From positions 1 to 35,080 of IMG/VR virus record IMGVR_UViG_3300020151_000934: 35,080 nucleotides of DNA; one strand, 5' to 3'. The position numbers were made by a program, and so were the translations under genes. The notes below the pieces were generated by a model that saw only the letters and a program-made list of their open reading frames with translations, was not told where the DNA came from and ran no database searches. Below are positions 1 to 27,788 of this stretch, one piece after another; the first letter of the stretch is position 1, and each line of letters opens with the position of its first letter. This DNA comes from a virus. Lineage: Duplodnaviria > Caudoviricetes.

Positions 1-315
1 CATCCTATAGAAGAATGTTCAAGTGCAGGGTTTCTTCTCTTATTAAGAACAACTGTACCTATTTATTTAATTGACAAGTCTATAAGATGCTTAGTTCATT
101 TCCCACGAGTAGATACTTTGTTAGATATGAACAAAAACCATATTTACAATAAAGAAGACATTAACAATAAATTTAAACAAAACGTGTTTAAAGATTATTT
201 AAAAGATTTACCAATACCCACTAAACAAATGAAAAAATTGATGAAAGGCGAGGACATAACATTATATTATAATGATTTATTAGAAATTTTTAAAGATAGG
301 CTAATACATGAGTAA
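1..315 (+). CDS. Hypothetical protein, 5'-truncated by the window edge
   Basis: Frame 1 is open from base 1 (HPIEECSSAGFLLLLRTTVPIYLIDKSIRCLVHFPRVDTLLDMNK...) to TAA at 315, so the tracked 118..315 ORF is probably only its C-terminus. Confidence 0.65.
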   Translation, partial: HPIEECSSAGFLLLLRTTVPIYLIDKSIRCLVHFPRVDTLLDMNKNHIYNKEDINNKFKQNVFKDYLKDLPIPTKQMKKLMKGEDITLYYNDLLEIFKDRLIHE

Positions 316-721
316 GAATAATAATCATTTTGAAATTATCAAAAATAAAAGACTTAAACAAGTACATTCTACAAAAGAATTCTTTGCTGGAGAGACCGTT
401 CTATTTATATGTTGTGAAGAATCAAGAATACCTTCTCAACACACAATACAATTAGATGTAAATTACCATGTATTAGACCCTATTGTAAAGTATATTAAGC
501 ATTCCTTTGATCCTAACGTAAAAGTAGAGGGACACTCTTTAGTAGCCATTAGGAAAATAAGAGAAGGAGATGAGATAACGAGAAACTATTACGAAACTGA
601 GGAAATTATTGTAAAGGAATTTACTGATAAGGAAACAGGAGAAAAAGTAAATACAAAGAATCTCTATTTATATAACAATAAACACACTGAAGATGGATTA
701 CTATTTGATGCAGAATTTTGA
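308..721 (+). CDS. Minimal SET-domain protein (putative lysine methyltransferase)
   Basis: VKYIKHSFDPNV resembles R(F/Y)INHSCxPN, LVAIRKIREGDEITRNY resembles A.RDI..GEE(L/I)T.DY, and N-terminal STKEFFAGETV resembles A...I..GE.I. Confidence 0.8.
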   Translation: MSKNNNHFEIIKNKRLKQVHSTKEFFAGETVLFICCEESRIPSQHTIQLDVNYHVLDPIVKYIKHSFDPNVKVEGHSLVAIRKIREGDEITRNYYETEEIIVKEFTDKETGEKVNTKNLYLYNNKHTEDGLLFDAEF

Positions 722-1244
722 TTATGAGGAGAATAGAAATTTATTTTGGGAAGTGAATCCTGAATTTAAATTCACAGAACCCTTTGATAATTTTTATAAT
801 TCTTCTGAAAACAAGGATTATACTTCAGAAGTAATGTGGGCCATATATCTTTTTTGTGATATAAAGTCCCCAAAGATTAGACTTAGAAAGGACGAAAGAG
901 AAGAAGATATTAAAAAATACTTCTTAAAAGATGATACTTTTAGCTTTGAGCATCATCAGGATTTAATAGATGCCTACCCAAAGGTAGTAATGACCAAGAT
1001 TCAAAGAGAGTTGAAAGTATGGCAGGATAAGATAGAGGAGAGAAACAAGTTCTTAGAAACTGTTTCTTATAGCTTAGATACATTTGAAGCTCTGGATAAG
1101 ATGATGAAAGACTCAAAACTTATTTGGGAATCTTTTGGAAAGATTTATAAGGAATACCAAGATGAGAACATTGAAACTAGGGCTAGAGGAGGAAGAGAAG
1201 AATCTTTCACTGAGAAATTAGTGAGCAAAGCAAATAAAAAATAA
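693..1244 (+). CDS. Hypothetical protein upstream of TerL (possible small terminase subunit)
   Basis: 183-aa charged, helical-looking ORF. The TerS idea rests only on position. The true start may be the ATG at 708. Confidence 0.6.
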   Translation: MDYYLMQNFDYEENRNLFWEVNPEFKFTEPFDNFYNSSENKDYTSEVMWAIYLFCDIKSPKIRLRKDEREEDIKKYFLKDDTFSFEHHQDLIDAYPKVVMTKIQRELKVWQDKIEERNKFLETVSYSLDTFEALDKMMKDSKLIWESFGKIYKEYQDENIETRARGGREESFTEKLVSKANKK

Positions 1245-1285
1245 ATAACACACACAAAACAATTAACTTAATAAAATTAACAATT

Positions 1286-1498
1286 ATGTACCCAGTAAAC
1301 AAGCCAAATCAATACAATCAACCAAAAGCTAAAGAAAATCCTTTACAGTTAAAGCATGGAAGTTATTTTTGGCTTTCAAGAGTTTTAGGAACGTACACTA
1401 AAGAAAGGTATGCACAAATGCAATTAGCCTTGGAAGAAATTAAACAAAGATCTGAAAATCAAGTTACTAACGAAGAAATTTCTTCTGAAACATTATAA
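1286..1498 (+). CDS. Hypothetical protein (70 aa)
   Basis: ORF with an A/CA-rich leader that fits the operon packing. Confidence 0.7.
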   Translation: MYPVNKPNQYNQPKAKENPLQLKHGSYFWLSRVLGTYTKERYAQMQLALEEIKQRSENQVTNEEISSETL

Positions 1499-1504
1499 TA
1501 TATT

Positions 1505-1741
1505 ATGATTATTTTTATAGACCTCACTACAAATAAGATAGAGATTGATGGATGCGAAGATCCTGAGTTAGATGTGCAAAAAACTTTGCGAAAAATAGCA
1601 AAGAATATTGATAAGTATGAAGTAGAGCAGGTTTCTATAAAGAAAGAGATGGAAAAAATGATTAACAAAATTATTTCTAACAGAATTGTTATAAAGGGAT
1701 TTAATGATGATGTTAAACCTAGAGAAACAAAAGATAAATGA
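1505..1741 (+). CDS. Hypothetical protein (78 aa)
   Basis: ATGA overlap with terL suggests translational coupling. Confidence 0.7.
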   Translation: MIIFIDLTTNKIEIDGCEDPELDVQKTLRKIAKNIDKYEVEQVSIKKEMEKMINKIISNRIVIKGFNDDVKPRETKDK

Positions 1742-4041
1742 TTATAGAGACTTCTTATATTTTTCCTAAAATATATGACAATACACCTTTTATTAAGCAT
1801 CACCCTGTTTTACATCCTCATAGTACAGCTTATGCTGAATATTGGACTAAAGAACTTGAGGAGTTTATTTTAGGGCTATGGAGAGAAGAACAAACTCCTG
1901 AAGGTATTCGTTGGAGGTATATGAATCCTCAATTAAATTACTTTACCAACTATCACACCATCACTATTCAAGATGGTAAGCAGCGTATTAAATCCAGGCC
2001 TAGCCTATTGGACATAAACTGGACAATATTAAATTGTTGGTTTATTTGTAGAGGATTTAGTGGATTTGACGGAGACGAGGAATATACATCTAATTGGACT
2101 GTAAAGTTAAAGGAAGATAAACTAATAAACCCTAATCTTCCAGATATTCCTCTAAAGTTTCTTAATAACCTTACTGACAACTGCTATAAGCAGGATGGCA
2201 CCTTAAAAAAGTATATAGATCCTTTAGAATATCTTAATGGTACCCATGAAATAAATTTAGGCAATCCTTTATATGAAAATAACTCTTTAAACTTATTTCT
2301 ACTAGGATCTCGGTCTGGAGGTAAATCCTTTATGGCATCTGCTCTTATGGAGCATGAGTGGCTATCAGACGGTGCTAAGACAGTGGAGGATTATTTATCA
2401 GGAAATAACAAAGTGGAAATATTTTGTGGATCAGCCAGTTCAGGTAAATCTTCTCAGCTTTTAGATAAATTCTCAAACTCTTTAAAGAATCTTCCTGGAG
2501 AGTACTTTGACAGAGAATATTTCCCTTCTCCTTTTAGCAGAACCTTCTCAGGTACCTTGAAAGTTGGTAACTCAAAGAATCCTTTTAGGTTTGAGTATGA
2601 AAAGAAAATAGGAAACTCTACAGTGAAAGAGGGGACAGGATCTCTTCTTATCCATGAAACCTATAAAGATAATAAGCAAGCTGCTGTAGGGGGTCGTTAC
2701 AACGTACTAATAGTGGAAGAGGTGGGATTAGAAGACAAAATCCTCACTGTACATGGAGCAAATGAATCTACGCAAGATATGGGAGCAGGTAAGTTTGGAT
2801 CATCATTCTACTTAGGAACGGGTGGAGACATGGAGAAAGTTATTGAGTCTGAGATTATCTTCAGAGACCCTGAAGCTTATGATTTCTTAGGATTTAAAGA
2901 TGTCTACGAAGGTAGAGGAGTTATTGGATTCTTTCTTCCTTCTATTTACACCAACTTAGCTTATAAAGATGAAAACGGTAATACTGATGTAGATACCGCT
3001 TTGAAATACGAGATGGAGAGACGTGAAGAAAAGAAACAAGCAAATAATACGTCTGCCTATGATGAGTATATCATGTCTAGGCCAATTAAGCCTTCTGAAA
3101 TGTTTCTCTCAAAAACTGGAAATAAGTTTCCTATTGTTATGCTTAGAGAACAGCAGGCTTCTAATGATAGGTACCAGTTTAAAAAACATTTAAGAACATT
3201 AGGACATCTTGTAGAAGATCCTGATTTTATTTCGGGAGTTAAATTTAAGCCTAACTTTGATTTGAGACCTATAGATAGGTTTCCTCATGATTCTAAGTCA
3301 GATTTAAAAAGTGCTTGGGAATTTTATGAACACCCTCCTGCGGGAATGATACCTCCTAATTTATTTAAGATTGTATATGACCCTATTAGAGATGAAGGAG
3401 GGGGAACATCCCTGGCGGCTATTTATGTTTACAAGTCTAATAATACATTAGATAATAATGGTAATGAGATTGTAGCTTGGTGGGTAGGTAGATACGATAT
3501 GCCTGAAGAAATACATCTTAATTGTGTATTAGCTGCTAAATATTTTAATGCTCAAGTAATGTTTGAGAATAACATTATTGACTTTAAGAATTATTGCATG
3601 AGGACAGGGAACTATCATATTCTGGCCCCCACTCCAAAACAAATAATTGAGAAAGCTATAAAAGACCCTACGCTAAAGTATGATGTAGGAGTACCAATGA
3701 CAAACCCTTTAAAGCAATATGCTTTAAGATTGGCACAACAATGGCTGTTAGAGGAGAAGAAAAAGTATGTAGAAGAGCTAGAAGATGGTACTAAGAGAGA
3801 AATAGTGGTGAGAAACTTAAATACTCTTAAAGATGATTTGCTATTAGAAGAGCTCATACAGTTCAATGACAAGGGAAACTTTGACCGAGTGTCTGCCTTT
3901 CTCTTACTAATGCTTTGGCTAGAGCAAGATAAAGAAATGATTATCAGCGAGTCCGAAGAAATAGTGAAAAAAACGTCAAATGATTTTTATAAAGATTTAT
4001 ATAATAACCAGTTAAAAAACACCAATTTACTGAAATATTAA
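1738..4041 (+). CDS. terL: Terminase large subunit, crAss-like
   Basis: Walker A LGSRSGGKS, Walker B VLIVEEVG, motif LGTGG, nuclease acidic motifs VYDPI, FENN and NFDRVSA. 767 aa, directly upstream of the portal. Confidence 0.93.
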   Translation: MIIETSYIFPKIYDNTPFIKHHPVLHPHSTAYAEYWTKELEEFILGLWREEQTPEGIRWRYMNPQLNYFTNYHTITIQDGKQRIKSRPSLLDINWTILNCWFICRGFSGFDGDEEYTSNWTVKLKEDKLINPNLPDIPLKFLNNLTDNCYKQDGTLKKYIDPLEYLNGTHEINLGNPLYENNSLNLFLLGSRSGGKSFMASALMEHEWLSDGAKTVEDYLSGNNKVEIFCGSASSGKSSQLLDKFSNSLKNLPGEYFDREYFPSPFSRTFSGTLKVGNSKNPFRFEYEKKIGNSTVKEGTGSLLIHETYKDNKQAAVGGRYNVLIVEEVGLEDKILTVHGANESTQDMGAGKFGSSFYLGTGGDMEKVIESEIIFRDPEAYDFLGFKDVYEGRGVIGFFLPSIYTNLAYKDENGNTDVDTALKYEMERREEKKQANNTSAYDEYIMSRPIKPSEMFLSKTGNKFPIVMLREQQASNDRYQFKKHLRTLGHLVEDPDFISGVKFKPNFDLRPIDRFPHDSKSDLKSAWEFYEHPPAGMIPPNLFKIVYDPIRDEGGGTSLAAIYVYKSNNTLDNNGNEIVAWWVGRYDMPEEIHLNCVLAAKYFNAQVMFENNIIDFKNYCMRTGNYHILAPTPKQIIEKAIKDPTLKYDVGVPMTNPLKQYALRLAQQWLLEEKKKYVEELEDGTKREIVVRNLNTLKDDLLLEELIQFNDKGNFDRVSAFLLLMLWLEQDKEMIISESEEIVKKTSNDFYKDLYNNQLKNTNLLKY

Positions 4042-4048
4042 AATAATT

Positions 4049-4079
4049 TTTATAAAAAAATAATTTTTAATTAATTTTG
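4049..4079 (+). promoter_or_regulatory. Putative promoter TTA-N19-TAATTTTG upstream of the portal gene
   Basis: Bacteroidota -7 element TAnnTTTG at 4072-4079. 28/31 identical to 6666-6696. Confidence 0.6.
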
Positions 4080-4099
4080 TTTTTTTAAATAAACTAAAA

Positions 4100-6610
4100 A
4101 TGGTAATAAACGATAGTTTAACCGCACAATTCTTAAACATGCCTGGAAGTGATAGGCTAAGTTATAAGAAAAAAATAGCTGATAACTATGCCTGGGCAAG
4201 GCAGAGAATGGATTACCTATGCAATCAATATAATTATTATAACGAAAGGAAAGAAAAGTTTAAAATCAACTACGAGTTATATAACGGTAGAATGGATTTT
4301 ACAAGTTATATAAATACAGGAAATATAATTGAGAATGAATTAGGAATGGATATTCCAGAAATGGAAATAAATCAAAGTGATTTTATACATTTTCCTATAC
4401 TACAGAATGTGTTGCATGACCTAGAGGGTGAGGAAATTAAAAGACCTTTTAATCTTAGAGTGGTAAGTACCAACTCTACAAGTGAATCTGTGAGACAAAG
4501 AACTCGTAGAGAACTTTTAGTTGAGAATACTTCAAAGATTGTCAAGCAAGATTTACTCTTAAAAGCAAAAGCAGCCAATCAAAAAAGATTGGAAGAAATA
4601 AAGGCTCAGATGGACCCGTCAATGGACCCTCAGTATTTAGAGAAATTACAAGAAATTACAGCTAACTTAGATGCTCAACTAGAGGAAACCATTAACAAAA
4701 TGACTCCTATTGAAGTAGAGACTTATATGTCTAAAGGCTTTAGATTGCCTGAAGAGAAGCTTACAGATGAGCTACTACAGTACCATATTCGTACAGATAG
4801 AATTAAATTAGTTTTTGATAAGGGCTGGAAAGATGTAATTATTACAGGAGAAGAGGTATATTGGACAGGAGAGTTGAATGGTAGACCTACCATCAAAGCT
4901 TGTAATCCTTTATATTTTAACTATGCAAAATCTAAAGATGTAGATTTCTTAGATGAAGCAGACTGGTGTACTTATGATGAGTACCTTTCTATTTACGAGA
5001 TTTATCAAAAGTTTGGAAATATAATTACAGAAGAAGAAAGAGAAGTGTTTGACAAATATGAGTCTACATTAAACTCTCCATCAGATTCTAAGGTGTGGGA
5101 AATTATTCCTAATGCTATTATGAATCCTACAGATTCTGAGGCTACCCCTAGCTGGATAGATCCTTGGGAAGACAATTACAGTGATAATTTTAAAATCAGA
5201 AGACTAAGAGTAACTCACGTTGTTTGGAAATCTTTGAAAAAAATTAAATATATTTTCAGATTAAATGAAAATGGTACCCTAGAAAAGACTATTGCTGATG
5301 AAACGTATGTTTTCAATAAAGAAACAGATGTTAAGCAAGAGATTCTATGGATACCTGAATTCTGGCATGGGTATAAAATATTTACCAATCCAAAGGTTTA
5401 TTTAAAGCTTGAGCCTATTCCTAATCAATATAGAGACGTTGATAATCCTTTCCAGATTAGAGGCCCTTATACAGGATCTGTTTATTCTGCAAGAAATTCA
5501 GCTCCTATAGCAATTGCAGATTTAGGAAAGCCTTGGCAGTTCTTATATAATGTAATTATCAATCAAATTATTGAATTGATGAAAACAGATATAGGAAATG
5601 TATTACTAGGGTTACAAGAGCAGATTCCAAAAGAAATGACTCCTACACAGTGGATGACTTATATTAAGAAGTTTAAAGTGGCCTTGATTAGTGCTTCAAA
5701 AGAAGGAGATTTGAGAAATATGGGTGTGGACCCTAATTATTGGAAATCAATCAACCTATCTCACGCTCAGGAGATAAACCAAAAAATACAACTATTAGAG
5801 TATATTGAGAAAAAAATGGCTCAATCTATGAGCTATAACCCTGGTAGACTAGGTCAGCAATCTCCTTACGAGTCTATAGGTAATAATCAACAAAGTATTA
5901 TTCAGTCTTCAAATCAAACGGAGAAATGGTTCTACATGCATAATTATGTAAAAGAAAGAACTGTTGAGAATTATATTGAAATATGCAAGGTAATATATAA
6001 GGAAAATCCATTAAAGGCTTCTTATATTCTTTCTGACTTGAGTGTAGCTACATTGAACACAGAGGTGGCAGATTTTGCAAACTATAACTATAAAGTGTTT
6101 ATAACGAATACATTAAGAGATACAGAGATTATTAGTCAATTGAAAAACTTGATTCAGCCTATTATTCAAAATAGTGGGGGAGATTTAAGAGTGGCTACAG
6201 AGATTCTTACTACAGAGAATGCTACAGAGGTTAAAAATATCATTGCTAGAATTCAGGAGCAAAAAGAAGCTAAAGAAGAGCAAATGCAAAAATCTCAACA
6301 AGAGCAACAAATGCAAATGCAGCAAATGCAAATTCAAGCTAAACAAGAAGAAATGAAGATGCAGAAACAAATAGCTGATGATAGAAATGCTGTAACATTG
6401 AAGTCTGCAGAGCTAAATGCTCAAAGATTAGAAAGAGCCAACGATATTGACCAGGATGGAACAAACGATTTGATTCAATTACAAATGGAAAAGAACGAAA
6501 ATGAATCAAGTGTAGAGCTCAATGACGCTAAGATAGCACAGATACAACTTCAGAATAAAAAAATTGAAACAGAAATTCAACTAATGAAACAAAAAGGGAA
6601 AAAAGATTAA
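4100..6610 (+). CDS. Portal protein, crAss-like
   Basis: 836 aa between TerL and scaffold/MCP. Contains NYELYNG and LEGEEIKRPF, plus a Q/M/E-rich C-terminal coiled coil typical of these portals. Confidence 0.88.
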   Translation: MVINDSLTAQFLNMPGSDRLSYKKKIADNYAWARQRMDYLCNQYNYYNERKEKFKINYELYNGRMDFTSYINTGNIIENELGMDIPEMEINQSDFIHFPILQNVLHDLEGEEIKRPFNLRVVSTNSTSESVRQRTRRELLVENTSKIVKQDLLLKAKAANQKRLEEIKAQMDPSMDPQYLEKLQEITANLDAQLEETINKMTPIEVETYMSKGFRLPEEKLTDELLQYHIRTDRIKLVFDKGWKDVIITGEEVYWTGELNGRPTIKACNPLYFNYAKSKDVDFLDEADWCTYDEYLSIYEIYQKFGNIITEEEREVFDKYESTLNSPSDSKVWEIIPNAIMNPTDSEATPSWIDPWEDNYSDNFKIRRLRVTHVVWKSLKKIKYIFRLNENGTLEKTIADETYVFNKETDVKQEILWIPEFWHGYKIFTNPKVYLKLEPIPNQYRDVDNPFQIRGPYTGSVYSARNSAPIAIADLGKPWQFLYNVIINQIIELMKTDIGNVLLGLQEQIPKEMTPTQWMTYIKKFKVALISASKEGDLRNMGVDPNYWKSINLSHAQEINQKIQLLEYIEKKMAQSMSYNPGRLGQQSPYESIGNNQQSIIQSSNQTEKWFYMHNYVKERTVENYIEICKVIYKENPLKASYILSDLSVATLNTEVADFANYNYKVFITNTLRDTEIISQLKNLIQPIIQNSGGDLRVATEILTTENATEVKNIIARIQEQKEAKEEQMQKSQQEQQMQMQQMQIQAKQEEMKMQKQIADDRNAVTLKSAELNAQRLERANDIDQDGTNDLIQLQMEKNENESSVELNDAKIAQIQLQNKKIETEIQLMKQKGKKD

Positions 6611-6665
6611 TCCCTTATAAACACTGGGTTTGCTGATTAATTTTTTTATTCTAAGAAAAAAATAA

Positions 6666-6696
6666 TTTATAAAAAAATAATTTTTTTTCAATTTTG
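6666..6696 (+). promoter_or_regulatory. Putative promoter upstream of scaffold/MCP
   Basis: TTTATAAAAAAATAATTTTTTTTCAATTTTG, a near copy of 4049-4079. Confidence 0.55.
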
Positions 6697-6739
6697 CAGT
6701 ACAAAACAATTATTTCACACACACACATAAACAAACAAT

Positions 6740-7876
6740 ATGCAAGAGAACAATTTAGATTTTGAAATTATAGAATTCAATGACGATCTTTTAGATGATA
6801 ATAACCTATCAGATAAAATAGAATCTATAAACGAAACAGAGGAAACAAATGAGGAAGAAGAAGACGATGATGATTCTTCTTTAGTTAACGCTGATTTGAT
6901 AGATGAAGATAATATTGACGACCTTGATCTTAATGATGAAGAAAAGGAAGCAATATTAAATAAGAAAAAAGAAAACGCTTCTTCTCAAAAAGAAGAAGAT
7001 GAAGATTCTTCAGAAGAAGGAGATGAAAATTCAGAGGTAGATCCTTTAAAAATATTTGCTTCAGAATTACAAGAAAAAAATCTTTTAAATCTTCCAGAAG
7101 ATTGGGATGGATCAGAAGAAGCTTTGTTTGAAGCTTATGAAGCTACTTTAGATGAAAGAGCTTTAAATTTAGTAAAGAGTTCTTATAAAATAGATGATCC
7201 TAGAGTAGACGGTGTTCTTAATTTTTTGAAGAATGGTGGAAATATTGATGAGTATATCAATTTACACGCAGAGACAAATTGGGTGGACGTAGACATTGAA
7301 GATGAAGATAATGCTACAGCTCTTGTAAAAACATATTTAACTTCGGTTAAAAATTTAGAAGAAGAAGAAGCAGAGTCACTTTTAGAAGGATATAAAGAAA
7401 AAGGAAAGCTATTTAATCAAGCTAGTAAAATACAAGCTGATTTAAAGGTTTTCAGAGAAAAACAAGAAGACGATCTTATAAAATCTCAACAAGAATATGC
7501 TCGTATCCAAAGAGAAGAGTATATTAAGAGTGTAAATAAAATTAGAGAGACTATTCAAAGTGGTAAGAGCAATAATGTAGTTATTGCTAAAAACCAAAAA
7601 AGTAATTTTGAAGATTTTATCTTTTCACCACAAGAGATAAGAAACAATAAGGGAGAGGTTGTAGGAAGAGCTACAGGGTTTAAACAAAAATTAAATGAGT
7701 ATCTTTCTGATCCTGAAAAAATGGTAGCATTAGCTTACAAAATATTTGAAGGATTGTCAGATAAGTCAGATAAAGTTGAAGTAGCAAGTAAAGAAAAAAG
7801 TAAATTGGCGGAAAGTTTGAGAAGAGCTTCTGGGAAAACAAAGCCAAATACAATTAAATTAGAATTCATAAATTAA
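6740..7876 (+). CDS. Putative capsid scaffolding protein
   Basis: Very acidic low-complexity N-terminus and helical C-terminus, located between portal and MCP. Confidence 0.7.
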   Translation: MQENNLDFEIIEFNDDLLDDNNLSDKIESINETEETNEEEEDDDDSSLVNADLIDEDNIDDLDLNDEEKEAILNKKKENASSQKEEDEDSSEEGDENSEVDPLKIFASELQEKNLLNLPEDWDGSEEALFEAYEATLDERALNLVKSSYKIDDPRVDGVLNFLKNGGNIDEYINLHAETNWVDVDIEDEDNATALVKTYLTSVKNLEEEEAESLLEGYKEKGKLFNQASKIQADLKVFREKQEDDLIKSQQEYARIQREEYIKSVNKIRETIQSGKSNNVVIAKNQKSNFEDFIFSPQEIRNNKGEVVGRATGFKQKLNEYLSDPEKMVALAYKIFEGLSDKSDKVEVASKEKSKLAESLRRASGKTKPNTIKLEFIN

Positions 7877-7902
7877 ATATTCAAAAATAAAATTAAATTA
7901 AC

Positions 7903-9480
7903 ATGAAATTATCACAAAGTAAATTCGGTATTATAAAAGCTCCTACGATTACAGGTGATCGTAACTGGGGTATGAACTATACCAACTTAAACAATCTATA
8001 TGCTGCAGGTTTGATTAAAACAGACGTAGACGCATTAGGTGGTATGGGTCAATTAGCATCAATGAAAACATTGTTTGACGGTACTGCACCATTATTGGAA
8101 CTAGCTCAAGGCTCTGACACTATCACTATTGAAGGTGACAAAGTAGAATGGGAATTCATGGTTTCAGGATACAGACCAGCTCTTATCGTGGAAGACGTTG
8201 AAGCAGGAAACCTTACAAAAGGTATTGCTCAAAGAGAGTTTAAAATTAAACTTGACATTGGAACATTTGTAGAAGGTGATACATTGGTATTCACTGACAG
8301 CAAAAAATTCAATATGCGTGTAAGTAAAGCTCCAGTTAAAGAAGGATCTTTCACAGTTTACACAGTTAAATTGATGACTGACAGCCCAAGCTTGTTTGTT
8401 GACAATAGTTTGTTCACTCCAGGAACAAGAGTAATGAAAATGCACTCTACTTATTCTGAGGCATCTGTAAAAGGTGGTTCAATGAGTGTTGATGCTATCG
8501 GTAAAATTAAATTCCGTTCTGGATTGACAAGATTTAGAAAACAATACCAAATGACAGGAGATGCTGCTCAAAGAAGATTGAACGGTAACTTGTCTGAGGC
8601 AGATTTGTTGATCTTGGCAGGAAGAAAAGCAGGTGAGAGCCAACAAGCTTTCCAAACAAGAATTGCTAACGCATTGAGCAAGAAAAATACAGGTAACATG
8701 TATATTACTTCAGTTGCTGAGGTTAAATTCAACAAAGAATTTGAAATGGAAAAAGAACTTCACTTGATGTATCAAAGAAGTACTTCTACAGTTATTGACG
8801 AGTCTACAGGATACTTTGTAAACCAAGGTCCAGGTCTTCAAGAGATTTTGGAAGACGGATACAGAGAATTCTACAACACTTTCTCTATTGGTCTTATCAA
8901 AGACTTCTTGCAAGATATATTCTTCGGAAGAGTTGCTTACGATCAAAGAAATGTTGTAATGTGGACTGGAGAGATTGGATTGAGATTGTTTGATGAGGCT
9001 ATCAACCAAATAACTCAAGGTTTCTTCAAAGATATGAAAGATTATTTCATCAAAACAGATGGTGCTTCATTGGTACCAGGTGGACCAACAGGATTGTCTT
9101 ACACTGAAACTCCATACACTCAATACAAATTGAAATTTGGTGGTTCATTGACAGTTATGCACATGAAAGCTTATGATGATGTAACTTTCAACACTATCTT
9201 AGATGAGAATGGTTACCCAGCAGAGTCTTCAAGATTTACATTCGTTAACTACGGATTGGGAGATGGTTTTGGTAAAAACATTTCTTACTTGAAATCTAAG
9301 AGAGATGTAGCTTACGGTTACGAAGGTGGATTGTCAAGCCCTTACGGAAACAACCAAGGAGCATTGATGTCTCACTCAGGTGACTTCTGGACAGTACATA
9401 GAATGGAATACGCAGGTATCATGGTAAAAGATGTTACAAAATGCGGTGAGTTGATTCCAGCAGTATTAAGAGGAAAATAA
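7903..9480 (+). CDS. Major capsid protein, crAss-like
   Basis: 525 aa following the scaffold. Motifs VEWEF, QGPGLQEILE and VMWTGEIG. Strong codon bias (TTC, AAC, TAC, GGT) and a downstream terminator. Confidence 0.88.
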   Translation: MKLSQSKFGIIKAPTITGDRNWGMNYTNLNNLYAAGLIKTDVDALGGMGQLASMKTLFDGTAPLLELAQGSDTITIEGDKVEWEFMVSGYRPALIVEDVEAGNLTKGIAQREFKIKLDIGTFVEGDTLVFTDSKKFNMRVSKAPVKEGSFTVYTVKLMTDSPSLFVDNSLFTPGTRVMKMHSTYSEASVKGGSMSVDAIGKIKFRSGLTRFRKQYQMTGDAAQRRLNGNLSEADLLILAGRKAGESQQAFQTRIANALSKKNTGNMYITSVAEVKFNKEFEMEKELHLMYQRSTSTVIDESTGYFVNQGPGLQEILEDGYREFYNTFSIGLIKDFLQDIFFGRVAYDQRNVVMWTGEIGLRLFDEAINQITQGFFKDMKDYFIKTDGASLVPGGPTGLSYTETPYTQYKLKFGGSLTVMHMKAYDDVTFNTILDENGYPAESSRFTFVNYGLGDGFGKNISYLKSKRDVAYGYEGGLSSPYGNNQGALMSHSGDFWTVHRMEYAGIMVKDVTKCGELIPAVLRGK

Positions 9481-25253: not shown

Positions 25254-25715
25254 ATGCAATTATCAGAAAATTTATCATTAGCAGAAGTTATAAGATCAGA
25301 AACTGCTAAAAGAAAAGGAGTTAGTAATATGCCAACTCCAGAACACATTGAAAACTTTAAACTATTGGCCACAAAAATATTTCAGCCTATTAGAGAGCAT
25401 TTTGCAAAGCCAATCCATATTTCTTCTGGTTATAGGAGTGCTGCTTTAAATAAAGCAATTGGTGGTGCTGCATCTTCTCAACATTGCACTGGAGAAGCTA
25501 TTGATATTGATATGGATGGAACATCTATAACAAATGCTCAAATTTTTAACTATATTAAAGATAATTTAATCTGGGATCAATTAATCTGGGAGTTTGGGAC
25601 CAAAGATAACCCTGATTGGGTACATGTATCTTACGAGTCTACAGGAAAGCAAAGAAAACAAATCCTTGTGGCTACAAAATCAGGAGGAAAAACTGTTTAT
25701 ACTCCATATAAATAA
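25254..25715 (+). CDS. Peptidase M15-family Zn peptidase (second peptidoglycan hydrolase)
   Basis: ISSGYRS, SQHCTGEAIDI (H-x6-D) and WVHVS. Confidence 0.9.
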   Translation: MQLSENLSLAEVIRSETAKRKGVSNMPTPEHIENFKLLATKIFQPIREHFAKPIHISSGYRSAALNKAIGGAASSQHCTGEAIDIDMDGTSITNAQIFNYIKDNLIWDQLIWEFGTKDNPDWVHVSYESTGKQRKQILVATKSGGKTVYTPYK

Positions 25716-25723
25716 AAAAACTA

Positions 25724-25753
25724 TTGACAGTTAGAAATATTGTTGTATATTTG
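25724..25753 (+). promoter_or_regulatory. Consensus Bacteroidota sigma-A promoter TTG-N19-TATATTTG
   Basis: TTG at 25724-26 and TATATTTG at 25746-53. Confidence 0.75.
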
Positions 25754-25758
25754 CAGCA

Positions 25759-26275
25759 TATTTATCTCACTGAGACAAATTTCTGGTGCCTGACGTTTGA
25801 GGGGAAACCCTGGTTCATAAGATTTCACTAGATAGTTTTAAATAAGTAAGGACCTCCGAGGATTAACAATTCAGATACCTTCAGGGAAAGGAGAGGAAAA
25901 ATAGGATCAAATGACGTAAGAATTGGGCTTCCCAGTTTCCTATAAAATACACGATAGTAAATATTCCTAAGTACAGAAATGTATATGGAAATTTATGAAC
26001 GAACTTACCAATAGAAACAAGATAGATGCGTTTATTGTAAAGTATTCAGATTTCCTAGATTTTTTCTCGGGAGAACCCTCTATTTCTTTAAATAATTACT
26101 ATAATCTAAGTTCTAGTAATATGCTCTAACTATGTCCAAAAAAAAATACAAAAAAATACATTTTTTTCTTTGAATTAAAAAAAAAGTAGTATCTTTGCAT
26201 CAGATAAATATATAGATAGAGCAATTCTGTCGGATACCCCTTGCTGATTCCCTTTGAGCAAGGGGTATTTTTTTT
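25759..26275 (+). ncRNA. Candidate structured non-coding RNA of unknown family
   Basis: Consensus promoter upstream, two GAAA-capped hairpins, exact CCTAAG/TATGG receptor, long-range helices, strong terminator downstream, and no long ORF. The 3' end is uncertain (could be near 26090). Confidence 0.55.
26169..26197 (+). promoter_or_regulatory. Bacteroidota promoter TTTG-N17-TATCTTTG
   Basis: TTTG at 26169-72 and TATCTTTG at 26190-97. Confidence 0.6.
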
Positions 26276-26276
26276 T
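26234..26276 (+). terminator. Strong intrinsic terminator
   Basis: Perfect 12-bp stem ATACCCCTTGCT/AGCAAGGGGTAT followed by a T-tract. Confidence 0.9.
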
Positions 26277-26283
26277 CTAAAAA

Positions 26284-26355
26284 CTAATAAAATCATAATT
26301 TTTTTTTACTTTTGTAAGAAATTATGTGCCATTAATAAAAAAATGTTTATTTTTG
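26284..26355 (+). promoter_or_regulatory. Tandem putative promoters for the phosphoesterase/tail operon
   Basis: TACTTTTG at 26307-14 (context resembles the 4049/6666 motif) and TATTTTTG at 26348-55. Confidence 0.5.
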
Positions 26356-26371
26356 CATAAAAATAATAAAA

Positions 26372-27589
26372 ATGATAGTACAAAAAACAATAGATAAATT
26401 TTTAAATTGGAGAGAAAATAATCAAAATTACCTACAATTTGGAAGACCAAGTAAAAAAGCATTGCTTAAAAGACTTAACAGGGAAGGGTTTAATCTATGT
26501 CCAGAAGAGTTAAGTTTTTTACTTAAACAATCAGGAAGGAATTCATTTATAAAAGAAAAAGTAAATGAAGGCACTAATGTATGGGTTCCTACAGAAATGG
26601 TAGATACAGTTAAAGAATTAAACGCCATCTATCAAGAAAGTAAGAAACTAGGGTTAGATGTGGGAGACGTAAAGCATGGGTGGTTAAAAACACAAGATGC
26701 TTCAATGTTTTTTACTAATCCTTTATACAAGAAAAAGGAAGAAGATGGGTTTTATAATGAACTAATAGAAGATTTACAAAATTTTTCTCCCTCTTTTCCT
26801 GTAATAAAAAGGACCCCTAGCAGTGAGGGCCATCTATTAATCATAGATCCTGCTGATATTCATATCGGGAAGTTAGCTATGGCTTTTGAAACAGGAGACG
26901 AATATAACACTAAAATTGCAGTAGAAAGAGTTTTAAAAGGAGTACAGGGTATTTTAGACAAGACATCAGGATTTAATATTGACCAAATTCTTTTTGTAGG
27001 CGGAAACGATATTTTACACATTGATACCCCAAAAAGAACTACAACAAGTGGAACGCCACAAGATACAGACGGAATGTGGTATTCTAATTTCTTAGTAGCC
27101 AAACAGTTATATATAGATGTATTAATGATGTTAATGCCAGTGGCAGATGTTCATTTCACTTTTAACCCATCGAACCATGACTACACCAATGGCTTCTTTT
27201 TAGCAGATGTTATCAAAACATACTTTAAAGATTGTAAGAACATAACATTTGATTGTTCTATTGCCCACAGAAAGTATTATAAGTATTATAACAACTTAAT
27301 AGGAACCACTCATGGAGATGGGGCTAGACAAGCAGATTTGCCATTATTAATGGCTCATGAAAGTAAGGATTGGAGCGATTGTAAGCATAGATATATTTAT
27401 ACCCACCATGTGCACCACAAGACAGCAAAAGATCATATAGGGGTTACAATTGAAAGTTTGAGAAGTCCTAGTGCTTCAGATAGCTGGCATAGTAGAAATG
27501 GATATACAGGAGTTCCAAAGGCAATAGAAGGTTTTTTACATCATAAAGAATTTGGTCAAATAAGCCGAATTACGCATATATTTAACTAA
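26372..27589 (+). CDS. Calcineurin-like metallophosphoesterase
   Basis: Five motifs in order: ADIHIG, GGNDILH, SNHD, THGD, HHVHH. About 150-aa N-terminal extension. Confidence 0.88.
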   Translation: MIVQKTIDKFLNWRENNQNYLQFGRPSKKALLKRLNREGFNLCPEELSFLLKQSGRNSFIKEKVNEGTNVWVPTEMVDTVKELNAIYQESKKLGLDVGDVKHGWLKTQDASMFFTNPLYKKKEEDGFYNELIEDLQNFSPSFPVIKRTPSSEGHLLIIDPADIHIGKLAMAFETGDEYNTKIAVERVLKGVQGILDKTSGFNIDQILFVGGNDILHIDTPKRTTTSGTPQDTDGMWYSNFLVAKQLYIDVLMMLMPVADVHFTFNPSNHDYTNGFFLADVIKTYFKDCKNITFDCSIAHRKYYKYYNNLIGTTHGDGARQADLPLLMAHESKDWSDCKHRYIYTHHVHHKTAKDHIGVTIESLRSPSASDSWHSRNGYTGVPKAIEGFLHHKEFGQISRITHIFN

Positions 27590-27593
27590 GATT

Positions 27594-27788
27594 ATGACAA
27601 CTTTTTTCTATTCTAAAGGAGGTCCTATAAATAACAACCAAAGCAATAATGGTGAGGGAGAACAGGCTATAAATTTAATAGACATTTATAGATACTTTCT
27701 TTCTCACCCTTTATGCAAATTTAGAAACATGCCTTATCAAATTTTTTTAGCAAGTTATACAAATTGGTTAGAAGCGCAATATAATTAA
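27594..27788 (+). CDS. Hypothetical protein (64 aa)
   Basis: Fills the gap in the operon. Confidence 0.55.
   Translation: MTTFFYSKGGPINNNQSNNGEGEQAINLIDIYRYFLSHPLCKFRNMPYQIFLASYTNWLEAQYN

Follow-up and report, generated by a model that had tools for sequence, protein, structure and literature searches.

The sole large ORF-free gap in the window, a 35,080-nucleotide stretch of viral DNA, holds an RNA element that, by comparison with its homologues, is real, selected and structurally supported; it consists of a core of ~270 nt (25760–26027) and a variable 3′ tail. We consider it highly probable that a folded RNA is made from this region and selected. The predicted fold belongs to no Rfam family and has an exact GAAA loop/receptor brace, a type whose solved examples so far come from ribozymes. 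The RNA is found in a clade of uncultured crAss-like phages, whose two complete genomes each keep it as a mobile gene present once. An earlier note on this DNA had put forward a candidate large structured phage RNA, perhaps undescribed, with an exact 11-nt GAAA receptor, and the homologues collected here bear the proposal out, displaying both covariation (23/70 pairs) and receptor conservation (11/11 sequences). The RNA is apparently undescribed and would represent a new fold class among the orphan large phage RNAs. Few classes of large tertiary-folded RNAs are known from bacteria and phages, and several of the earlier ones are ribozymes or RNA-only assemblies. Its 270-nt length, defined ends and natural variants open this RNA to direct transcription, probing, assay and imaging; it would give a first structural handle on the non-coding RNAs of crAss-like phages and, if it turned out to be catalytic, would be of an entirely new category.

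The window is a 35-kb crAss-like phage fragment encoding a Crassvirus capsid, two CrAss ring proteins, a terminase and a P22-like portal. Its nearest named relatives are distant (32% identity of the capsid to Flavobacterium phage Fpv3/4, 34% of the terminase to Cellulophaga phage phi14:2), and these relatives, together with the promoter motifs, point to a Bacteroidota host. The gap (25716–26371), which the earlier note had already singled out, separates an M15 endolysin gene from an exonuclease gene. No conserved ORF was found in the element, the ORFs of either strand being lineage-specific; antisense ORFs of 44–51 codons were dropped on that ground. A candidate antisense target (a 9-nt match near window position 27620) was set aside for want of a counterpart in G001, one of the two complete genomes. 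The window exonuclease (26372–27589) looks mosaic by alignment, with ~35% identity over its length to its counterparts in G001 and G002, the other complete genome, 58–63% over residues 1–120, and 63–90% in neighbouring genes. All motifs listed in the earlier note are present where it placed them. The features as we now define them are as follows, where a two-sided change alters both members of a pair.

25254..25715, + strand: upstream gene, M15 peptidase endolysin, outside the element; differs among relatives
25724..25753, + strand: predicted Bacteroidota sigma-A promoter (TTG 25724–26, 19-nt spacer, –7 box TATATTTG at 25746–53)
25760..26027, + strand: structured RNA core, 268 nt, closed by P1; model R1 scores 210–322 bits on 11/11 sequences, its own training set
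25760–67 with 26020–27, + strand: P1, closes the core and joins its 5′ and 3′ ends; 8/8 pairs in 11/11 sequences, four two-sided
25771..25840, + strand: domain I, with P2, P3 and the P3a GAAA hairpin
25771–76 with 25835–40, + strand: P2, tentative; 100% paired, one-sided change only
25782–88 with 25826–32, + strand: P3; 100% paired, with a single two-sided change once the register is corrected
25791..25873, + strand: candidate pseudoknot from domain I to the P5 loop (TGA 25791–93 with TYA 25871–73, TTG 25797–99 with CAA 25867–69)
25800..25811, + strand: P3a hairpin with invariant GAAA tetraloop at 25804–07 (11/11); 3/4 pairs two-sided
25829..25846, + strand: near-invariant 18-nt stretch TAGATAGTTTTAAATAAG (3′ strand of P3, 3′ strand of P2, junction to P4); one insertion in L582
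25846..26008, + strand: domain II, closed by P4, holding P5, P6/P6b and P7
25846–50 with 26004–08, + strand: P4; GTAAG/CTTAC, GGTAG/CTACT or GATAG/CTATC
25853–86, + strand: P5; one pair two-sided
25889..25899, + strand: invariant purine-rich junction strand AGGAGAGGAAA (11/11), without a start codon behind it
25901–43, + strand: P6/P6b; three two-sided pairs in each
25952–26001, + strand: P7, long rod carrying the receptor; seven pairs two-sided
25966..25988, + strand: 11-nt GAAA receptor (CCTAAG 25966–71 and TATGG 25984–88), capped by a 2–4-bp stem and a GNRA loop
26009..26019, + strand: conserved A-rich junction strand CAATAGAAACA, from P4 to P1
26028–68, + strand: variable hairpin region between P1 and the 3′ hairpin
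26069..26078, + strand: conserved 3′ hairpin GGG-(AGAA/GTAA/ATAA)-CCY; 3/3 pairs in 11/11, one-sided change only
26190..26197, + strand: TAnnTTTG box within the tail, the second of its type; L392 and L380 have it too
26234..26277, + strand: intrinsic terminator with a 12-bp stem plus a T run, where the primary transcript is predicted to end; stem covaries
26348..26355, + strand: TAnnTTTG box directly before the downstream gene, with another box at 26307
26372..27589, + strand: downstream gene, PHROG ‘DNA repair exonuclease’, outside the element; a different gene follows the RNA in G001 and L582

Covariation, fold and the GAAA receptor

Homologues were found in 17 IMG/VR contigs and comprise 11 distinct sequences of about four lineages, with identity down to ~70%. 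Between the window and G002 the core is identical at 241/267 positions, as against 43–79% agreement at four-fold sites of five structural genes (terminase 105/224, portal 116/199, capsid 157/198, ring proteins 35/54 and 33/76). The margin is smaller for G001, at 174/249 core positions and 43–68% of four-fold sites. Across the 272 alignment columns 141 are invariant, 78 of which fall among the 138 unpaired columns. Folding of the region alone is no better than that of shuffled sequences (minimum free energy, z = –0.13).

Paired changes among the homologues support a two-domain RNA fold in which most helices are backed by such changes. RNAalifold, run on the plain alignment A6, returned 67 pairs, 20 of them with two-sided change. 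Our adjusted 70-pair model, evaluated on a plain MAFFT alignment, is paired in 95.5% of 764 cells and has 23 two-sided pairs, a number reached by 0/500 shuffles, while controls with slid partners gave at most 6. An alignment fitted to model R1 yields 26 two-sided pairs out of 67, but P6 is mis-registered there in three rows, and we therefore prefer 23/70. The covariation probabilities are optimistic because the structure itself comes from these sequences, and the signal is carried by just about four independent lineages, with alignment A8 fitted to the structure. Since shuffling ignores relatedness, lineages were also compared directly on the fitted alignment. Between L392 and L555, 26 pairs changed, of which 23 were kept and 18 were double changes (3.8 expected under the null); the corresponding figures are 13, 11 and 5 for the window and L392 (null 0.7), and 8, 8 and 2 for L555 and L582 (null 0.15). 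The window and L003 differ at two pairs, one of them kept, which is uninformative.

Several two-sided changes each are found in P1, P3a, P4, P6, P6b and P7, one each in P3 and P5, and none in P2. Three hairpins proposed in the earlier note are upheld: AGGG-GAAA-CCCT (P3a), ATAGGA/TCCTAT with its inner GGG/CCC hairpin, and the receptor hairpin, whose stem covaries. Three other proposed helices fare poorly and are replaced by other helices in our model; jointly they show 2 two-sided changes in 20 pairs, a level reached by 32/500 shuffles. Pairing of GTTCATAA (25813–20) with TTATGAAC (25993–26000), thought to close a ~190-nt domain, retains 3/8 pairs in 3/11 sequences and 7/8 in two more, and closure falls instead to P1. 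The TTTC-TGGT/ACCA-GAAA helix is unsupported, its TGGT/ACCA part pairing in 77% of cells. TCTC/GAGA has one two-sided change, is broken in 2/11 sequences and competes with the better-supported P1, before whose closure it might form briefly. We also dropped TGAGGG/CCTTCA, broken in L555; GGTTC/GAACT, with one two-sided change in L555, broken in L582 and overlapping P4; and ACGT/ACGT, for which L555 has no second strand. In the candidate pseudoknot 6/6 pairs are possible in 11/11 sequences when anchored per sequence, with two-sided change in none.

All 11 sequences contain CCUAAG/UAUGG within a helix and a conserved GAAA loop elsewhere. The bare CCTAAG..TATGG pattern occurs in 30/100 shuffles of the window and is not significant; with a closed stem and GNRA cap it occurs in 0/2000, which is significant. 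The 11-nt receptor is described as specific for GAAA (PMC3494683, PMC11571812). Its own cap is GAAA in 5/11 sequences and GAGA, GUGA or GCAA in 6/11, on a cap stem that covaries, so the cap is not its conserved ligand. The loop at 25804–07 is the only GAAA loop invariant in 11/11, even as its stem switches from AGGG/CCCT to AACT/AGTT. Because the receptor is GAAA-specific and the P3a loop stays GAAA while the cap varies, the P3a loop is the likely, predicted ligand, in cis or between molecules, in keeping with the docking suggested in the earlier note. The oligomerisation through the receptor's GAAA cap that was proposed alongside is disfavoured by the cap sequences and by the presence of the same hairpin elsewhere: among 120 viral pattern matches, ten are perfect GAAA-capped receptor hairpins, one being this RNA and nine lying in contexts that look, by eye, like group I introns.

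Predicted transcription unit and genomic position

The consensus promoter that the earlier note placed at 25724–53 stands in position, and a Bacteroidota sigma-A type, with a TAnnTTTG box at 25746–53, describes it better than TTGACA/TATATT; the TTG at 25724–26, judged by its spacing to the –7 box, we take to be the –33 element. From the position of the –7 box, transcription is predicted to start at ~25758 in the window. The Bacteroidota sigma-A TAnnTTTG box spans –12 to –5 (PMC9723704). In all six homologues checked, the box ends 5–7 nt before P1 and P1 begins 0–2 nt from the predicted start. At the other end, the terminator stem (26234–68) has 2 pairs with two-sided change in 2/5 sequences. 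Its loop ATTCCCTTT is kept in 5/5 aligned relatives while the stem covaries. The box inside the tail (26190–97) would give a ~75-nt transcript ending at the same terminator.

Downstream of the RNA, both genomic sites have a terminator hairpin and then a new promoter box. In G001 and L582 a hairpin and T run are followed by a new promoter box and then by a different gene, the G001 hairpin being visible though a simple terminator scanner made no call there. The RNA is thus likely a stand-alone unit transcribed by the host polymerase, as judged from these signals, and transcription would be middle or late. In phi14:2, genes of the middle and late classes use the host polymerase, and two intergenic regions yield abundant RNAs of unknown function (bioRxiv 10.1101/2020.03.07.982082).

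Close copies were found through relatives of the downstream exonuclease, and a pattern scan recovered a 90% type (L392, L380, L425). A string common to all types matched 35 loci, of which 17, including the variant L582, are homologous. Among 24 loci of the exonuclease clade the element lies upstream of the gene in 11 and is absent there in 12, with one locus too short. The complete 97.7-kb genome G001 has no element before its exonuclease and carries a 72% homologue where the early and structural modules diverge. G001 and G002 have one copy each, at two different sites with different flanking genes, each copy with its own promoter box. Comparison of these genomes shows that the RNA moves as a cassette with its own promoter and that its genomic position is not fixed.

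The distribution found so far is narrow. Model R1 detected no homologue in eight reference crAss-like genomes (best E 0.72, genome-wide, for phi14:2, where bases 1–9000 gave at best 9.3 bits with filters off), in 44 other viral records (a set of 46 held only the 2 known homologues), or in 100 receptor-pattern loci, and over 90 mixed loci it found just two known copies. Bacterial genomes were negative (0/151 and 0/2), as were eight GTDB pattern matches. A metagenome scan produced 7 homologous loci out of 51, all of known types; blastn of GenBank phages and receptor-based scans returned close copies or noise and nothing further; and in distant small phages the gaps that follow the exonuclease contained no homologue. 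Distant members may be missed by the pattern scans, because these require exact words.

Comparison with known RNA classes

Rfam 15 includes ROOL, GOLLD, OLE, raiA, ARRPOF, HEARO and riboswitches. It gave no match to the window at gathering thresholds and none of significance at E ≤ 10 (best E 0.058), where matches lay mostly over the downstream promoter and terminator and the two overlapping the core scored 17.1 and 12.3 bits. Nor did Rfam match two divergent homologues, and ARAGORN found nothing in the window. The novelty proposed in the earlier note survives the covariance-model check suggested there.

The earlier note had also failed to match the RNA to group I or II introns, RNase P or tmRNA, and our comparison agrees: the defining patterns of these classes and of the hammerhead are absent in 4/4 representatives tested. 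An exact CCUAAG/UAUGG receptor in a GNRA-capped hairpin and a separate GAAA hairpin are shared with group I introns. The P7 guanosine-binding pair with R and S motifs is lacking, however, the candidate G–C being G–U in L555; no gene is interrupted, there are no exons and no P1/IGS with terminal G, and at both sites the element lies between genes and has a promoter box to itself. For group I introns little weight can be put on the Rfam negative, since the general model also missed the group I-like locus L453. For group II, the 5′ GUGYG and the domain V triad hairpin are missing, and Rfam is also negative. With B-type RNase P the RNA has in common a helix closing the 5′ and 3′ ends, a GAAA/11-nt pair (docking being predicted here) and a GAGGAAA string; unlike it, the RNA lacks the tested CR-I/CR-V patterns (P4), a P4-type pseudoknot and any Rfam match. 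The hammerhead CUGANGA core is likewise missing.

A string of the form GTTTTAAATAAG-N-AGGAC also occurs in six tmRNA-like phage loci (L556, L558, L568, L570, L573 and L578), and ARAGORN called tmRNA in 3/3 of those run. In contrast to phage tmRNA, the RNA has no tRNA-like domain, T-loop, CCA end or tag ORF, and R1 does not score on tmRNA loci; the shared 11-nt A-rich string is at most a loop motif. An unannotated 470-nt tmRNA was noticed in phi14:2 (KC821624.1, L623:4031–4500) beneath a pair of small predicted ORFs, together with a tRNA-like stretch at ~1760–1852, seen by eye only. For the tmRNA, ARAGORN gives the tag GSSVQKLAMVA*, and the Rfam score of 46 bits (E 7e-16) falls slightly short of gathering.

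By its sequence signals the element has the marks of a large orphan RNA: its own unit, a multi-junction fold backed by covariation, and the lack of an ORF. The orphan phage RNAs ROOL and GOLLD need no protein for their assembly (PMC12286853). Like them, this RNA is phage-encoded, stand-alone and multi-helix, with loop–helix tertiary contacts that are predicted here; unlike them, it is ~270 nt, as compared with >800 for many GOLLD RNAs, and has a different helix order (PMC12286853). It also does not lie beside tRNA arrays in G000, G001 or G002, and no intermolecular (oligomer) contact was found in it. It resembles raiA, a 205-nt monomer, in size class, compactness, orphan status and many invariant junction bases, and differs in its phage rather than bacterial chromosomal location, its canonical 11-nt receptor and its lack of an Rfam match (PMC12286853). 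With the intergenic long RNAs of phi14:2, which are abundant (bioRxiv 10.1101/2020.03.07.982082), it shares a crAss-like phage origin and non-coding character, but no homology by R1. Literature searches returned no description of this RNA. The IMG/VR-wide screen of Fremin et al. (PMC10690425) could include a fragment; motif strings of the RNA are absent from its supplementary files 3, 5 and 6, and six contig names from file 4.

Receptor-like stretches of other kinds came up in the searches. At ~1400–1600 of L214, L225, L251 and L267, a non-coding-looking stretch combines CCTAAG..TATGG with the string GGGTAAAAGTCCAC; L214, L251 and L267 are contigs of ~410, 93 and 412 kb, and in L214 the stretch sits between tRNA genes. 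It has no Rfam match at E ≤ 1 except 20.5-bit noise, is not homologous to this RNA by R1, and is possibly a second undescribed RNA. The related contigs L243 and L309 have a CCTAAG-helix-TATGG stretch, without significant Rfam match in L243.

Possible functions

We tentatively read the RNA, giving this not quite an even chance, as a compactly folded, trans-acting scaffold or decoy that would bind a protein or ribonucleoprotein partner. We lean this way because the RNA and its promoter move together as a cassette, a terminator insulates it, its neighbours vary and it contains no ORF, and because in kind it is close to ROOL, GOLLD and raiA. The host polymerase would make the RNA from its own promoter to the terminator; the GAAA loop at 25804–07 would dock into the receptor at 25966–88 and clamp the two domains, the P3–P5 pseudoknot would link domain I to domain II, and the invariant junction strands would bind the partner molecule during infection. 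Candidate partners in G002 are Ro60/TROVE, PNK, an RNA ligase and 27 tRNAs (148/191 ORFs scanned). Ro60, PNK and RNA ligase were not found among the 93/96 ORFs scanned in G001, where ARAGORN called no tRNA and Rfam one weak tRNA. Since Ro60 turned up in G002 alone, we gave up the idea of a Ro60/Y-RNA-type partnership.

The main rival, which we consider unlikely, is a new class of large ribozyme, a free-standing crAss-like phage gene that would cleave or process RNA in cis or trans; in an equally unlikely detailed version, the GAAA/11-nt brace and the pseudoknot would hold the two domains around a catalytic core made up of the invariant junction bases near P1, P2 and P4. It ranks as the main rival because the account of four solved GAAA/11-nt contacts in PMC3494683 names group I ribozymes and B-type RNase P and nothing else, and because many junction bases are invariant (78/138 unpaired columns at ~70% overall identity). 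The size and multi-junction architecture fit a large ribozyme, and the eye picks out some echoes of group I introns: AAATT precedes a helix, and the receptor hairpin is followed by a 7-nt strand. Yet the RNA has no known catalytic motif, interrupts no gene, has its own promoter and lacks a consistent substrate, with 27 tRNA genes in G002 versus one weak Rfam tRNA in G001. Descent from group I as a degenerate or repurposed intron core we regard as highly improbable. The receptor is followed by AACGAACTT at the same spacing in the group I-like loci L453 and L470, and the Rfam negative is weakened by the miss of L453, but the would-be guanosine-binding pair fails in L555, the R and S motifs are absent in 4/4, the AACG bases pair locally with covariation, and a P3 partner, P6 and exon context were not found.

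It is also rather unlikely, in our estimate, that the RNA is a cis-acting leader, either a riboswitch aptamer or a put-like antiterminator that would let polymerase pass the downstream terminator and enter late genes. In favour of this, the predicted start coincides with the beginning of P1, a terminator follows within 160–250 nt, and at both sites the RNA points the same way as late genes; against it, different genes lie downstream, each preceded by a promoter box of its own beyond the terminator, no anti-terminator pairing conserved across lineages was found by eye, and in G001 the element is missing before the exonuclease but present elsewhere. That the RNA is a ribosome decoy or regulator, in which the invariant AGGAG pairs with the anti-Shine-Dalgarno tail of 16S rRNA, appears quite improbable. 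AGGAG has 5–7 bases complementary to the 16S 3′ end of a Bacteroidota genome and no start codon behind it, Bacteroidota retain the anti-Shine-Dalgarno tail but rarely use it (PMC6847099), and GOLLD was pulled down with ribosomes (PMC12286853). A 5-base match in a purine-rich strand is, however, expected by chance, the AGGAG bases could pair inside the RNA, and the Bacteroidota genome used may not be the host's. We give very little credence to a DNA-level site (origin, packaging or protein-binding region) or a mere promoter spacer with no RNA. [quoted passage not shown]

Further genes of interest were seen in the two complete genomes. G002 contains an array of 26 tRNA genes (L603:6744–18540) with the Ro60/TROVE gene inside it; the array adjoins a PAS histidine kinase, a response regulator and a second GH19 endolysin, with PNK and RNA ligase nearby in L604. 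In G001, a 93-nt tRNA-like gene with an aberrant anticodon region (L600:4520–4612, – strand) lies ~3 kb from the RNA and scores 41 bits with Rfam, without an ARAGORN call. The PhoH gene of G001 (L601:8219–9985) carries a LAGLIDADG intein, while the PhoH of the window is just 222 aa long.
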